Below the pieces are notes generated by a model. The model searched no databases. It was not told the DNA's origin and saw nothing but the letters and a program-made list of their open reading frames with translations. A stretch of DNA of 51,407 bases, taken from the IMG/VR virus record IMGVR_UViG_3300025723_000058, positions 1 through 51,407 of that record; one strand, written 5' to 3'. This stretch comes from a virus. Its lineage: Duplodnaviria > Caudoviricetes. The position numbers and the translations under genes are program-made. Shown here piece by piece: positions 3,904 through 26,084 of the stretch. The first letter of the stretch is position 1. Each line of letters opens with the position of its first letter.

Positions 3904-3930
3904 AAAAAAAGGATACCCAATGTATCCTTT
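3904..3930 (-). terminator. Intrinsic terminator ending the tRNA array
   Basis: AAAGGATACATTGGGTATCCTTTTTTT; near-identical to 2128-2154. Confidence 0.8.
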
Positions 3931-3960
3931 AACGTAATATTTACCCACAAATAATCGCTG

Positions 3961-4048
3961 CGGAGAGCATCGAAATCGAATCGAATTCAGCTTTCGCCGA
4001 ACGTCACGCTTAGCAGGCGGACCCCATCGCCATCAGGGTTTACTCTCC
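3961..4048 (-). tRNA. tRNA-Ser(GCT), 8/4 fold
   Basis: GGAGAGTA/TGCTCTCC 8-bp acceptor, CT-GCT-AA loop, long variable arm, 4-bp T stem, G73. Confidence 0.8.
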
Positions 4049-4058
4049 ATTTTAACTG

Positions 4059-4132
4059 TGGTCCTACGGGGATTCGAACCCACGAAGTACCGCTTAGAAG
4101 GCGGTCAGTTTATCCAGTTAGCTTATGGGACC
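4059..4132 (-). tRNA. tRNA-Arg(TCT)
   Basis: Cloverleaf; ACCGC-CT TCT AA-GCGGT; GGTTCGAATCC. Confidence 0.92.
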
Positions 4133-4137
4133 AATTT

Positions 4138-4191
4138 AATAGGGTGTAAAGGTTCTGCCTTACACAAGGTGCGCTTACCTTACTTCCTATT
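4138..4191 (-). ncRNA. Small three-way-junction RNA
   Basis: AATAGG/CCTATT closing stem, hairpins AAGGT/ACCTT and GTGTAAGG/CCTTTACAC. Confidence 0.4.
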
Positions 4192-4193
4192 AG

Positions 4194-4273
4194 TACATAC
4201 AATGAGATTCGAACTCATATCTTCCACTCCAATTACGATTAACAACTTAGAAGGTTGACTCGGCTATGTATGC
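4194..4273 (-). tRNA. Non-canonical D-armless tRNA-like RNA, anticodon TCT
   Basis: GCATACA/TGTATGT acceptor, short linker, CAAC-CT TCT AA-GTTG, long 3' linker with TAATTGG, canonical T arm. Confidence 0.7.
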
Positions 4274-4276
4274 ATA

Positions 4277-4429
4277 TTATTTTTTATACTCTTCACCAAT
4301 ATTATTATCAGTATCCGCATTATCAAATGCACCACCATACTTAACCATATCTTCAAACCATATTGGTAATGTTTTACGTAAATCCAATTTATTTATCAAT
4401 AAATCTTCTAAAATTTCTCCTACTGTCAT
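4277..4429 (-). CDS. Small hypothetical protein (50 aa)
   Basis: Hand translation MTVGEILEDLLINKLDLRK...EEYKK; fills gap between tRNAs. Confidence 0.5.
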   Translation of the reverse strand: MTVGEILEDLLINKLDLRKTLPIWFEDMVKYGGAFDNADTDNNIGEEYKK

Positions 4430-4430
4430 G

Positions 4431-4503
4431 TAGTCCTGTCGAGATTCGAACTCGAAAAAATTGTTTAGGAAACAACTATGATTTCCAATTTCATCACAGA
4501 ACC
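4431..4503 (-). tRNA. tRNA-Arg(CCT)
   Basis: Cloverleaf; GTTGT-TT CCT AA-ACAAT. Confidence 0.85.
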
Positions 4504-4508
4504 ATATT

Positions 4509-4679
4509 TTACTTTAACTCATTTAACTGTTTTCTCAAGTCTTGAATCTTAGTTAAGTAATCACTTACACTTATTTCAGCGGTGTTTGATACTTTTTGTT
4601 TAAGATTTAACTTCATTTCATTTTCGAGAAACTCAATCCTTTCTTCAATCTTCTTTCTTTTTTTATCAATCTTTGCCAT
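4509..4679 (-). CDS. Small coiled-coil hypothetical protein
   Basis: MAKIDKKRKKIEERIEFLE...; ATG 4679 avoids overlap with tRNA. Confidence 0.6.
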   Translation of the reverse strand: MAKIDKKRKKIEERIEFLENEMKLNLKQKVSNTAEISVSDYLTKIQDLRKQLNELK

Positions 4680-4681
4680 AG

Positions 4682-4756
4682 TGGTCTCTAAGGGATTCGA
4701 ACCCATTAGCCTCCTGATTCGTAGTCAGGTGCTCTATCCAGTTGAGCTAAGAGACC
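4682..4756 (-). tRNA. tRNA-Arg(ACG)
   Basis: Cloverleaf; CCTGA-CT ACG AA-TCAGG. Confidence 0.93.
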
Positions 4757-4761
4757 AAATA

Positions 4762-4873
4762 AACATAGTTACTGTACTCGACAACAGCTTGTATAATCAT
4801 CACAATTTTTTAACGTGGTACGGACACTAACTCCACCTGATATTAGTTCTTTTTATATCACATTTACTATGCT
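4762..4873 (-). ncRNA. Multi-hairpin structured RNA between tRNAs
   Basis: AGCATAGT/ACTATGTT closing stem enclosing 3-4 hairpins. Confidence 0.4.
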
Positions 4874-4874
4874 G

Positions 4875-4946
4875 TGGTCCTAAAGCGACTCGAACGCTTA
4901 TCAAATGTTTCGAAGACATCTATCCAATCCATTGGACGATAGAACC
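4875..4946 (-). tRNA. tRNA-Arg(TCG)
   Basis: Cloverleaf; GATGT-CT TCG AA-ACATT. Confidence 0.88.
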
Positions 4947-4951
4947 AAAAG

Positions 4952-5028
4952 TCCCGACAGTGAGATTCGAACCCACGTGTAACCAACTACTCTTTCAACG
5001 CCTTATGAGAGCGAGGAGATATGTCGGG
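4952..5028 (-). tRNA. Non-canonical D-armless tRNA-like RNA, anticodon CAT
   Basis: CCCGACA/TGTCGGG acceptor, CGCT-CT CAT AA-GGCG, linker with TAGTTGG, GTGGG-TTCGAAT-CTCAC. Confidence 0.7.
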
Positions 5029-5034
5029 ATAATG

Positions 5035-5110
5035 CGGACAATGTAGGACTCGAACCCACAACCCTGTGGCTAACAACCACCTGCTCTATCCAGTTAATAG
5101 CTAATTGTCC
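5035..5110 (-). tRNA. tRNA-Asn(GTT)
   Basis: GTGG-TT GTT AG-CCAC; G73. Confidence 0.82.
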
Positions 5111-5122
5111 AATATAAATTTG

Positions 5123-5194
5123 AGGATTGTGAGAATTTCGAAATCTCGACCTGAACCTTAACAGGGTCCTGCTCTGCCTCTGAGCTAACAATCC
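5123..5194 (-). tRNA. tRNA-Asn(GTT), U73
   Basis: GGACC-CT GTT AA-GGTTC; atypical discriminator. Confidence 0.82.
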
Positions 5195-5258
5195 ATGGGT
5201 ATCTATGAACGTTTTAAACCGTGTGCGGACCATAGATAGTCTTATTCGCAACCTTCTG

Positions 5259-5329
5259 CTCTCCCAACAGGGGTCGAACCTGTAATAACTGATTAACAGT
5301 CAGACGTGATACCATTTCACCATAGAAGA
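5259..5329 (-). tRNA. tRNA-Asn(GTT)
   Basis: CTGA-CT GTT AA-TCAG; U1-A72, G73. Confidence 0.88.
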
Positions 5330-5336
5330 ATGTATG

Positions 5337-5426
5337 TAGTGCAGATGGGATTCGAACCCACATTTGATATTATCTCAAGATACCATTACAAGTGTGATGT
5401 GTATAAGACACCGCTGCTACTGCACT
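5337..5426 (-). tRNA. Non-canonical D-armless tRNA-like RNA, anticodon TAT
   Basis: AGTGCAG/CTGCACT acceptor, GGTGT-CT TAT AC-ACATC, long linker with TAATGGT, canonical T arm. Confidence 0.7.
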
Positions 5427-5432
5427 ATATTG

Positions 5433-5506
5433 TGGACACTACTGGGCTCGAACCAGTGACTTCAATGTTATGAGCATCGCACTCTAACCAACTGAGTTAA
5501 GCGTCC
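5433..5506 (-). tRNA. tRNA(CAT), Ile2 or elongator Met
   Basis: Cloverleaf; CGATG-CT CAT AA-CATTG; G1-C72, A73. Confidence 0.88.
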
Positions 5507-5700
5507 ATTTGTTGGAAATACATCTTTACCTTAAGATAAGACATAAAATCTAATTTTTCACTTAAAAGACGTTGAATATTCTCAACATTACCTACATAAA
5601 GCGGAGCATTATCTGCTAACTCTTTAGCAATTTCGATTGTTGTATTCTTAGGAACACCACAGTCGGCCAAAATCTTAATTACTATACTTGTCATATCCAT
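5497..5700 (-). CDS. Small hypothetical protein
   Basis: 67 aa ORF filling inter-tRNA gap; stop lies inside next tRNA. Confidence 0.55.
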   Translation of the reverse strand: MDMTSIVIKILADCGVPKNTTIEIAKELADNAPLYVGNVENIQRLLSEKLDFMSYLKVKMYFQQMDA

Positions 5701-5701
5701 G

Positions 5702-5784
5702 TTGTGACGGTGGGACTCGAACCCACATCGTTCTTACGAACCTGCCGTATCAGAGCAGTGCCTAAACCATTCAACCACGTCACA
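5702..5784 (-). tRNA. tRNA with GAT (Ile) anticodon and long variable arm
   Basis: CTGCT-CT GAT AC-GGCAG; variable hairpin GTTC-GTAA-GAAC; A73. Confidence 0.8.
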
Positions 5785-5935
5785 ATTTTTCTCTAATTGA
5801 TAATACATCCTTCTCAAATATACCTCTTATTGTTTTCTTATCTTCAAAAGACATTCCACAATAAACCAAAGTGTTATTAAGTGTTCTAAAGATGCTCATC
5901 ACTAAAATTTCACCCATTTTATCCTTTACAATCAT
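5780..5935 (-). CDS. Small hypothetical protein (51 aa)
   Basis: Hand translation MIVKDKMGEILVMSIFR...REKL; fills gap. Confidence 0.4.
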   Translation of the reverse strand: MIVKDKMGEILVMSIFRTLNNTLVYCGMSFEDKKTIRGIFEKDVLSIREKL

Positions 5936-5937
5936 TT

Positions 5938-6015
5938 TGGGCGACACAAGGGAATTGAACCCTTAACTACTAGTAAAAGGTGGCTCGACCACCCGTTGCA
6001 ATCCATGCTGCCGCC
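5938..6015 (-). ncRNA. tRNA-like RNA without a proper anticodon loop
   Basis: GGCGGCA/TGTCGCC acceptor, AAGGG-TTCAATT-CCCTT T arm, GGTGG-TCGAG-CCACC hairpin. Confidence 0.55.
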
Positions 6016-6062
6016 ATTTATTTATTTTTAATTATTCTACCTTTAAACCAACCACATATAAG

Positions 6063-6083
6063 GTACAAAAAAGTCAAGGGTGG
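6063..6083 (-). repeat. 21-bp exact repeat, copy 1 (copy 2 at 11031-11051)
   Basis: gtacaaaaaagtcaagggtgg identical at both sites. Confidence 0.9.
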
Positions 6084-6154
6084 GTACCGCTGGAGTCGAA
6101 CCTGCAACCGCCGCCGTATCAGAGCGGTGCTCTAACCAGTTGAGCTAGATACCC
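6081..6154 (-). tRNA. tRNA-Ile(GAT)
   Basis: Canonical cloverleaf; CCGCT-CT GAT AC-GGCGG. Confidence 0.93.
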
Positions 6155-6167
6155 ATTAAAAATCAAG

Positions 6168-6258
6168 GGTGTACGATGGGATTTGAACCCACGATGTTTG
6201 ATTAAATCGCATTCTGCTTCACAGGCAGATTCCTTCGACCACTCGGACCACGCACACC
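6168..6258 (-). tRNA. tRNA-His(GTG) with long variable arm
   Basis: G-1:C73; TCTGC-CT GTG AA-GCAGA; about 20-nt variable region. Confidence 0.82.
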
Positions 6259-6266
6259 ATATACTA

Positions 6267-6416
6267 GTCTTGGTAAAGGGATTTGAACCCTCAAATTGGT
6301 GACTAATCCAACTATTATTTTCATTGTCATCTGGTTTACTAAAGCAGGTCTTCCATAAATGGTCCAAATACTTTCCTCAAACAGTAATCTCGTTTACCGA
6401 TTCCGACACACCAAGA
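6267..6416 (-). tRNA. tRNA-like gene with about 60-nt insertion in the anticodon loop
   Basis: TCTTGGTG/TACCAAGA acceptor, D arm, AGTTGG/CCAATT variable arm and T arm intact; anticodon loop interrupted. Confidence 0.6.
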
Positions 6417-6421
6417 TAATG

Positions 6422-6509
6422 CGGAGAACGTAGCAATCGAAGCCAGCCCAACTTAATGGGTTCTTGTTTTCCAAACAAGCGAGAGCCACCTGCTCTTCCT
6501 TCGCTCTCC
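6422..6509 (-). tRNA. tRNA-Ser(GGA), 8/4 fold
   Basis: GGAGAGCG/CGTTCTCC, CTTGT-TT GGA AA-ACAAG, variable arm, TGGC/GCTA 4-bp T stem, G73. Confidence 0.8.
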
Positions 6510-6516
6510 AAAAATG

Positions 6517-6588
6517 GGTGTAACCACGGTATCGAACCGAGTTCTTCTCCTTCACAGGGAGACGCTTCACCTTAAAGCTTGAAACACC
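6517..6588 (-). tRNA. tRNA-His(GTG)
   Basis: G-1:C73; TCTCC-CT GTG AA-GGAGA; U-U mismatches in acceptor. Confidence 0.8.
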
Positions 6589-6592
6589 ATGT

Positions 6593-6678
6593 TGGAATAT
6601 GTGGGATTCGAACCCACGGAACCACCCAAGGTTCGCCTGTTTCGCACAGGTGCTTTAAACCACTCAGCCAATATTTCC
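6593..6678 (-). tRNA. Degenerate class II tRNA, probably Ser(CGA)-like
   Basis: Good D, variable and T arms; loop TG CGA AA lacks U33; bulged acceptor; A73. Confidence 0.55.
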
Positions 6679-6680
6679 AG

Positions 6681-6769
6681 CGGTGAGACTCGGAATCGAA
6701 CCCAGAAGCCAGCTTTTAACCGACACGGCTGTTTTCAAGACAGCTGCCTTACCGTTAGGCTACCTCACC
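6681..6769 (-). tRNA. tRNA-Ser(TGA)
   Basis: GCTGT-CT TGA AA-ACAGC; long variable arm; G73. Confidence 0.9.
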
Positions 6770-6797
6770 GTATATACTAAATTTCACTATTTAGTTG

Positions 6798-6944
6798 CTG
6801 ATAGGGGAGGATTCGAACCATCCATGTTGAGATTAGGAACAGAACATATCGCTACCGTGTGGTCAACCCATTATTCTGTCTTTATTTCTTTATCAACGCC
6901 TCCGAGACAAGGAGGTGCGTCTGCCAAAATTTCGCCACCTATCA
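6798..6944 (-). tRNA. tRNA with GTC (Asp) anticodon and about 75-nt variable region
   Basis: TGATAGG/CCTATCA, G73, CCTCC-TT GTC TC-GGAGG, TTCGAAT T loop. Confidence 0.7.
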
Positions 6945-6954
6945 ATTTATTGTG

Positions 6955-7055
6955 CACGTAAAATAGGATTTGAACCTATGCGGAGACCTAACATAAATGT
7001 TATATATCTCAGTAGGGTTGGAACCTACCACCTTCGACCACTCGGTCATTTACGT
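6955..7055 (-). tRNA. tRNA-Trp(CCA) with about 32-nt variable arm
   Basis: GTAGG-TT CCA AC-CCTAC; GAGAT/GTCTC and TAACAT/ATGTTA variable stem; G73. Confidence 0.78.
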
Positions 7056-7522
7056 ATATTATTTTTACCAGAATAAGTGTCTGTTTGACTATGACAGTTT
7101 GGACATAAAAATCTTAAATTTTCAACCCTATTATCTTTATGATTACCATTTTTATGGTCAAGTTGTAAAACAATTTGATTACCAAGCCATGTATCTTTCA
7201 CTGTACAATGGTTACCAGAACATTCATAAACTAATATTTTTTCATTTACTAATCTTTTTTTTAATCTTCGCATATTTTGATAAGTGGAATTTTCAACTAA
7301 AATATCTTTTAAATCTATTTTAGGTCCAATTATACTATTACCCTTATTTTCATAAACTGGTGGTGTAATACCGAGTCTTATACAATGATTTTTAAATGTT
7401 TTATATGCACCAGAACCATTTGAGGCAACATTTAATTTTTTTAATATTTCATTAATTGAAGTTGATTTTTCAATTAATAAATTCATTTCTTCTTTAGTTA
7501 AATTTGCGATTTTCATATTCAT
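7046..7522 (-). CDS. HNH homing endonuclease
   Basis: LQLDHKNGNHKDNRVENLRFLCPNCHSQT. Confidence 0.9.
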   Translation of the reverse strand: MNMKIANLTKEEMNLLIEKSTSINEILKKLNVASNGSGAYKTFKNHCIRLGITPPVYENKGNSIIGPKIDLKDILVENSTYQNMRRLKKRLVNEKILVYECSGNHCTVKDTWLGNQIVLQLDHKNGNHKDNRVENLRFLCPNCHSQTDTYSGKNNIRK

Positions 7523-7572
7523 TTATAAATAAATATCTATAAATAGCGAAAAAGACAAACTTAACGCATTCG

Positions 7573-7644
7573 CACGGGTAGAGAATTTTGAAATCCCGAC
7601 ACCTAGTTTTGGAGACTAGTGCTCTGCCTCTGAGCTATACCCGT
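7573..7644 (-). tRNA. tRNA-Trp(CCA)
   Basis: Canonical; CTAGT-CT CCA AA-ACTAG; G73. Confidence 0.9.
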
Positions 7645-7659
7645 GTGTTTCCCGTAATG

Positions 7660-8024: not shown

Positions 8025-8052
8025 ATTAATAAATATATGCAAATATACGAAA
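8025..8052 (-). promoter_or_regulatory. Composite promoter of tRNA array
   Basis: TTTCGTATATTTGCATATATTTATTAAT: TAnnTTTG -7 element plus TATTTAT; identical to 9570-9597. Confidence 0.75.
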
Positions 8053-8172
8053 AGTTTTTTAATTGTCAAGTTTTTTTTAAACTTTTTTTTTGACAACCTT
8101 TTAAAGAACTCTTATTTTTTATTTACAATGCAAATATACGAACTAATTTTGAATTGGACAAATCTTTTTTTT

Positions 8173-9269: not shown

Positions 9270-9339
9270 TTGCAGTGGCTGGAGTTGCACCAGACTGTAA
9301 GCTTATGAGGCTTACCTGCTACTATTACATTACCCTGCT
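9270..9339 (-). tRNA. Degenerate tRNA(CAT), initiator-like
   Basis: TAAGC-CT CAT AA-GCTTA; 1:72 mismatch; TGCAACT T loop. Confidence 0.6.
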
Positions 9340-25757: not shown

Positions 25758-25994
25758 TTAGTTTGCTTTGTTTGATAAACTACCTCTCCAGAATGCTCTT
25801 TTATTCCAAAGTGTTTTATATAATTGAGTCAAGACATTTTTTGTTATTTCAACAACTTTAGTCTCAAGTTCTTGCTCGTTTTTTATTCTATCCTTAACTA
25901 TTCTTTCAATCTTATTTTTGAACTCAGCACTATCCATATAGACCTTAATACTTCTGTCAATATCTGATTTACTTAATTCTTCGTTGATTTTCAT
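25758..25994 (-). CDS. Hypothetical protein
   Basis: 78 aa ORF. Confidence 0.65.
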   Translation of the reverse strand: MKINEELSKSDIDRSIKVYMDSAEFKNKIERIVKDRIKNEQELETKVVEITKNVLTQLYKTLWNKRAFWRGSLSNKAN

Positions 25995-26084
25995 GTTATA
26001 TAATTTGATATTATATAAATATACGTATATAAACGAAAAAAGAGACTATTTAGGTCTCTTTTTAATATTCATCTTAAATTATTT

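Follow-up and report, generated by a model that had tools for sequence, protein, structure and literature searches.

The window, by which we mean the whole stretch of DNA analysed (51,407 nt), is an entire 51.4-kb virus record and a piece of a large phage genome. Its phage genes include a sigma factor, DnaG, SbcCD, DnaJ and a ClpP-like gene, and a tmRNA is also present. A minus-strand tRNA array runs from about 3950 to 7650 and contains three genes of unusual layout, here termed rewired, at 4194..4273 (anticodon UCU, Arg), 4952..5028 (CAU, Ile2 or Met) and 5337..5426 (UAU, Ile). The initial annotation had located all three exactly, and all lie on the minus strand. By consensus match only, the best sigma-70-like site upstream of the array falls at 8042..8069 (minus strand, 11/12 matches) and a terminator-like hairpin with a U tract closes the array at 3908..3930 (minus strand); 20 sigma-70-like sites and four terminator-like hairpins were counted, against shuffle means of 15.6 and 2.6. 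BLAST of the array and comparison of the primase found no close cultured relative of the window: the array matched canonical tRNAs only, and the primase reached at best 33% identity (Flavobacterium phage immuto). A BLAST query with the rewired UCU gene by itself returned 6 partial matches.

Directly downstream of the rewired UCU gene lies a tRNA-Arg(UCU) gene of canonical layout (4059..4132, minus strand, 40 bits in Rfam), which has four mismatched stem pairs spread over the acceptor, D and T stems and is possibly decaying. Two minus-strand tRNA-Ser-like genes (3957-4049 and 6421-6511) combine an 8-bp acceptor with a 4-bp T stem (8/4 type), carry the anticodons GCT and probably GGA, and were detected neither by ARAGORN nor at the Rfam gathering cut-off. 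The same strand holds two tRNA-like genes of 145 nt whose D arms are class II-type and whose variable regions are structured and oversized (6268-6413 and 6800-6943), as well as a tRNA-Ile(GAU) with a long variable arm and a class II-type D arm (5702-5784) beside a normal tRNA-Ile(GAU) (6078-6155). A tRNA-like RNA at 5940-6015 (minus strand) consists of an acceptor, a T arm and two short hairpins with no proper 7-nt anticodon loop, and was rejected as a member of the rewired class by our family model, R1. A CAU tRNA at 9271-9338 has a 6-bp anticodon stem and an odd T loop, and the end of an HNH endonuclease gene (7046-7522) overlaps the 5′ end of the tRNA at 6955-7055.

The three rewired genes share a 7/7 acceptor stem, T8-A9, a 7-nt anticodon loop with U33 and a purine at position 37, a 5/5 T stem with TTCGAAT, and A73; none encodes CCA. 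Spacers of 6 (TCT), 5 (CAT) and 5 (TAT) nt follow the TA, and linkers of 23, 21 and 34 nt hold TAATTGG, TAGTTGG and TAATGG, respectively. The anticodon stem has 5 bp in the TAT gene and 4 bp plus a T-T pair in the other two, and the UCU acceptor contains three G-U pairs. In the UCU gene (long subtype, anticodon 4251-4249), the 5′ strand of the D-stem, CGA at 4260..4262, pairs with 4236-4238, part of a segment 3′ of the anticodon arm (4229..4238) that comprises the partner strand TCG and the relocated D-loop TAATTGG. The adjoining segment 4219..4228 spans the A20 equivalent at 4228, a short strand that pairs with GC at 4263-4264, and the U48 equivalent at 4219. The CAU gene (short subtype, anticodon 5007-5005) carries the partner strand GAG, paired with CTC at 5016-5018, and the D-loop TAGTTGG within 4977..4992; G15 at 4987, U20 at 4982 and C48 at 4977 give the compensated G15-C48 form. 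The UAU gene (long subtype with a small inserted hairpin, anticodon 5405-5403) carries the partner strand TTG, paired with CAG at 5414-5416, and the D-loop TAATGG within 5362..5391, with U20 at 5382 and a 21-nt linker ending in U48 at 5362. Family model R1 scores the UCU gene, a member of its training set, at 70.7 bits, the CAU gene at 70.4 bits and the UAU gene, whose closest relative is L084, at 60.5 bits.

A structural descriptor combined an acceptor with a T arm, placed the anticodon arm 10-15 nt after U8 and required a GG, but not TARTTGG, within the linker. It returned exactly three matches in the window, the three rewired genes, and none in dinucleotide shuffles (500 of the array and 40 of the window). 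Together with dissection of the sequences, this verified the parts of the common plan that the initial annotation had proposed for the three RNAs. Standard tools mostly fail on these genes: ARAGORN left two undetected and misread the third as Val(CAC), only the TCT gene reached the Rfam RF00005 cut-off (34.3 bits), and Rfam holds no family for the rewired class. In the RNA run (share 0.11), where contigs show presence only, no contig lay over the three genes.

Four scans of IMG/VR and one of metagenomes brought the rewired family to at least 214 distinct members, including the three in the window. The first pattern, which combined an anticodon loop with free anticodon, TARTTGG and a T loop, recovered at least 119 IMG/VR loci. 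Of the further scans, one required NAT anticodons, so its 7 members are no free anticodon sample, and another used a pattern that was mostly noise (16 members from the 121 loci listed). Rows were dropped from the set in three rounds (9, 4 and 7); these included matches such as L024 and L047, which are canonical tRNAs with long variable arms, and two true members, L013 and L640, that the descriptor mis-parsed or missed. Among the 214 members, themselves a sample of the matches listed and not a total, 161 carry Arg anticodons (UCU 70, ACG 56, UCG 26, CCU 6, GCG 2, CCG 1) and 51 carry Ile/Met-type anticodons (UAU 25, GAU 20, CAU 6). Thus 212 of 214 fall into these types though most scans left the anticodon free, as do 44 of the 45 new members from a scan with no anticodon-loop term. 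Their anticodon loops are fully canonical, and 97 of the 214 encode CCA. The remaining two members have the anticodons UCA and CCA. The former (L087, 282-369) combines UCA with A20, is closest to Arg(UCG) members (0.84) and, from these features, is a possible UGA-to-Arg reader; the latter (L712) carries G20.

Sequence comparison gives the strand order of the class as acceptor, U8-A9, one D-stem strand, anticodon arm, a bulge of 3-10 nt, the other D-stem strand, the D-loop U-A-R-N-N-G-G-20, a linker ending in A and then base 48, and the T arm. The strand that follows U8-A9 pairs beyond the anticodon arm, on its 3′ side, and the partner strand leads into the D-loop. The canonical D hairpin (10-13 with 22-25) is absent, only 5-6 nt following U8-A9 in the window genes. 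The initial annotation had called the RNAs D-armless, which was wrong: pairing statistics and RNAalifold reveal a D-stem of 2-3 bp that is present but re-routed.

The evidence for this stem includes an alignment of 107 of the first 112 members; it was made with MAFFT from sequence only, and five members with long inserts or a mis-parse were left out. Run blind, RNAalifold returned the acceptor, anticodon and T stems plus a 3-bp re-routed stem, 20 pairs in total. Pairing in the first three stems was selected by the descriptor, and only compensatory changes count there; the re-routed stem was in neither the search patterns nor the descriptor. Its three positions are paired in 107/107, 107/107 and 89/107 aligned members, with two-sided changes in 17, 62 and 49 and at least four pair types at each position. 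Counted over 27 distinct strand combinations, paired cells number 72 of 81; shuffles give 37.6 on average and at most 52. The pairs hold in 94, 93 and 45 of 95 later members and in 212, 212 and 142 of the 214 listed, the third pair being non-standard in 72 of these. The top 19 pairs by APC-corrected mutual information are 18 stem pairs followed, at rank 19, by the Levitt pair 15:48, which joins a D-loop base to the base before the T stem and reads A-U in 196, G-C in 12 and otherwise in 6 of the 214. All such counts overstate independence, given the relatedness of the members and the fact that one subtype accounts for five of 14 records.

Long-subtype members show further pairing between the bases after A9 and a strand 3′ of the D-loop (40 and 44 of 48 cells; 23/32 on distinct combinations, shuffle p 0.002), which leaves the D-loop bulging from the 3′ side of a single long arm; the UAU gene of the window shows a compensatory G-C swap in this extra helix. 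The bases for G18-U55, G19-C56 and U8-A14 are present but invariant and partly fixed by the search patterns. Folded as single sequences, the window genes give the re-routed pairs a probability of 0.01-0.10 and prefer other folds by 2.6-7.2 kcal/mol; as a control, two of eight canonical D-stems in the window score as low and six score better. The initial annotation had suggested an alternatively wired tRNA class and named covariation among homologues as the check. That suggestion is supported: the re-routed stem and 15:48 covary in at least 214 distinct sequences. As judged from these comparisons, the rewired genes are real, not chance matches, and constitute a distinct structural class of tRNA gene.

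The base after GG tracks the anticodon. It is A in 160 of 161 listed Arg-type members and, among the 51 listed Ile/Met-type members, U in 45, A in 4, G in 1 and C in 1, after correction by eye for the mis-parsed L114 and L680; the split is present in both the short and the long subtypes. Bacterial Arg identity elements are listed as A20, C35, U/G36 and A/G/U73, and U20 and A73 are listed as bacterial Ile determinants (Table 1 of PMC9976931). Matching these, the window UCU gene has A after GG, C35, U36 and A73, and the UAU and CAU genes have A35, U36, A37, A73 and U20; A73 is found in all 51 listed Ile/Met-type members. Position 38 is A in the CAU gene and C in the UAU gene, as in the canonical Ile(GAU) genes of the window. 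In E. coli, minor Ile determinants are C4-G69, C29-G41 and A38, with lysidine at C34 for CAU. Of these, C4-G69 is absent from both Ile-type genes of the window.

Nearest-neighbour sorting did not separate Ile from Met for the CAU gene, whose nearest neighbour is an Arg(CCU) member (0.75) and whose next is an Ile(UAU) member (0.72). We lean slightly towards Ile2 over Met on sequence grounds, because the class otherwise has only Arg and Ile anticodons and because the CAU and GAU members of L110 are mutual nearest neighbours. Since the position-20 split holds in both subtypes and the nearest relative of the CAU gene is an Arg(CCU) member, the sequences suggest that anticodon and position 20 changed together more than once. 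For a synthetase to read base 20 together with the anticodon, the moved loop would have to lie at the elbow; the split is the strongest indirect sign of both the fold and charging.

The rewired class looks phage-borne. With a Sugarland-like member as query, 271 cultured-phage records match, 247 of them over at least 80% of its length; FelixO1 is among the carriers, and of the 40 rows listed, 35 are without tRNA annotation there. A cellular origin was considered and rejected, as only 4 of the 119 GTDB loci listed (38/64 parts scanned) hold a member. These four (L301, L308, L332 and L355), three of them with other tRNA genes alongside, may belong to prophages or to phage DNA binned in error. An obligate link to homing endonucleases was likewise rejected as a general explanation: by a crude motif test, 7 of 73 members with enough flank have such a motif nearby and none of the three window genes does, although the association is seen in FelixO1 and Sugarland. 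In phage T5, an anticodon-armless derivative of the class (L241, 17433-17504) lies inside the annotated RNAX ('stable RNA with unknown functions'), whose 5′ part has the same tail and stem with no anticodon arm. Another member (L034) matches the canonical tRNA-Arg of T5 in its T arm and in 13 of 14 acceptor bases, consistent with descent of the class from an ordinary tRNA-Arg. The change could have arisen by tandem duplication of the D and anticodon arms and subsequent loss of the outer halves.

We then compared rewired with canonical genes in 13 of the 14 IMG/VR records with a completeness rating of 90% or more (all but G017; 20 stretches around arrays) and in FelixO1. In the stretches read, a canonical gene with a matching anticodon accompanies only one of 16 rewired genes and is missing for the other 15, although the records are not independent and tRNA genes outside these stretches may be missed. 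A canonical UCU gene is found in one of nine records with a rewired UCU gene, versus four of five without one. In the stretches read, the only Ile(GAU) gene of one record (G018) is rewired, another record (G026) combines one canonical with three rewired Arg genes, and the rewired gene of FelixO1, at 25951-26029 of NC_005282, is the only UCU tRNA in its array. The suggestion in the initial annotation that a UAU anticodon would read AUA without TilS is plausible but not peculiar to the rewired class, since canonical tRNA-Ile(UAU) occurs in 4 of the 13 IMG/VR records. The window is the exception to replacement, its rewired UCU and CAU genes being redundant with genes of canonical layout; its UAU gene is the only UAU tRNA there. 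Across 36 window ORFs, AGA accounts for 191 of 367 Arg codons (52%) and AUA for 336 of 1018 Ile codons (33%).

Together, these data make it likely that the three genes encode functional tRNAs for Arg and Ile whose backbone follows a second topology; we favour function as tRNA-Arg and tRNA-Ile because the cloverleaf is lacking but the elements of the tertiary core and of identity are in place. The RNAs would be processed from the array transcript and receive CCA by addition. With the D-stem closing around the anticodon arm and the D-loop 3′ of it, a normal L shape is the probable outcome, which would be held by U8-A14 and by contacts of G18 and G19 with the T-loop. Host synthetases would then probably charge the UCU tRNA with arginine and the UAU and, presumably, the CAU tRNA with isoleucine, and ribosomes would use them to decode AGA and AUA codons during infection. 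The wiring may be kept since its changed core surface escapes host tRNA-cutting defences, or it may be a neutral isomer that replaces the canonical gene. The first of these is a guess that we hold tentatively: phages might spread a second tRNA topology with the same elbow and identity pocket, built from re-ordered strands, that is charged, decodes normally and evades defences cutting tRNA-Arg and tRNA-Ile. Escape from nucleases that read the loop alone is not expected, as the anticodon loops are canonical.

The initial annotation had left open whether such RNAs are functional or decoys, and the position-20 switch and the replacement pattern favour the functional side. L-shaped decoys, perhaps charged, that stay off the ribosome and soak up anticodon nucleases or aminoacyl-tRNA-modifying toxins would fit the presence in the window of UCU and CAU genes in both layouts, the fully canonical anticodon loops that bait would need, and the anticodon-less derivative in T5 RNAX; some irregular tRNAs are described as unused in translation in the accessible part of PMC5389517. 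We nevertheless regard decoys as unlikely, given that a rewired gene usually replaces the canonical one (15/16) and that identity bases, discriminator and stem lengths suited to synthetases and elongation factor are conserved among members with six Arg and three Ile/Met anticodons. Still less probable is that one or more window copies are decaying relics of a family functional elsewhere. The T-T pairs atop two anticodon stems, the three G-U pairs in the UCU acceptor, the strong alternative folds and the redundancy in the window point that way, but all three genes keep every family feature and show compensatory changes (G15-C48 in the CAU gene, the extra-helix swap in the UAU gene), U-U at the top anticodon-stem pair is common in the family (20/107), and broken stems are found in the canonical UCU neighbour instead. 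Truly D-armless, flexible tRNAs of mitochondrial style, with an incidental GG and no canonical core, would account for the low single-sequence probability of the re-routed stem and are compatible with GG and T-loop bases that, being invariant, do not covary, but we consider them very improbable because a molecule lacking a canonical core and elbow would hardly explain the covariation of the stem and of 15:48 or the position-20 switch.

If working tRNAs are indeed built this way, the textbook cloverleaf is not their sole wiring, recognition by synthetases, processing enzymes and the ribosome depends on shape and a few surface bases and not on the order of strands, and phage tRNA inventories are undercounted for Arg and Ile, the family being widespread and mostly unannotated in cultured-phage records. 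The rewired scaffold may also serve engineered tRNAs and help to define the tRNA features that anti-phage nucleases recognise. To our knowledge, the arm order of the cloverleaf has been treated as universal outside mitochondria. A literature search, whose scope excluded subscription and older T5 literature, found no description of the rewired layout, and the sources used to judge novelty were without the structure of B. cereus tRNA-Other (PMC3399842, available in part) for comparison. The candidate DNAVirus_2961, given in the accessible portion of PMC10690425 as 56 nt and overlapping tRNA-Arg calls, could be a fragment of the rewired class.

Several known RNAs depart from the standard tRNA form in other ways. 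The tRNA-like domain of tmRNA presents a tRNA elbow in a non-cloverleaf layout. The Y RNA YrlA does the same, as far as the available part of PMC10424219 describes it. Neither has a decoding anticodon arm, which the rewired RNAs possess, and the three RNAs have no Rfam match to either. Allo-tRNAs and 8/4 tRNA-Ser/His (Mukai et al., PMC5389517, in the part consulted) are also missed by standard finders and also occur in phage tRNA clusters, where an 8/4 or 9/3 acceptor branch is combined with a conserved cloverleaf. By contrast, all three window genes are 7/5 and have changed core wiring instead; two 8/4-type tRNA-Ser genes lie in the same array. Mitochondrial D-armless tRNA-Ser shares with the rewired class the lack of a D hairpin between acceptor and anticodon arms, having lost the D-arm and become flexible, according to the accessible text of PMC7609411, which makes no mention of phage or permuted tRNAs; the rewired class, in contrast, keeps all D elements, covarying and moved only. 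With canonical Arg and Ile tRNAs (RF00005, e.g. T5 tRNA-Arg(UCU)), the class has in common the 7-bp acceptor, 5-bp T stem, U8-A9, 7-nt anticodon loop, 15:48 pair, GG, and A20 or U20, yet RF00005 and ARAGORN mostly fail on it. Compared with their cloverleaf, the rewired D-stem is wrapped around the anticodon arm and followed by the D-loop, which gives a three-way junction in the secondary structure.
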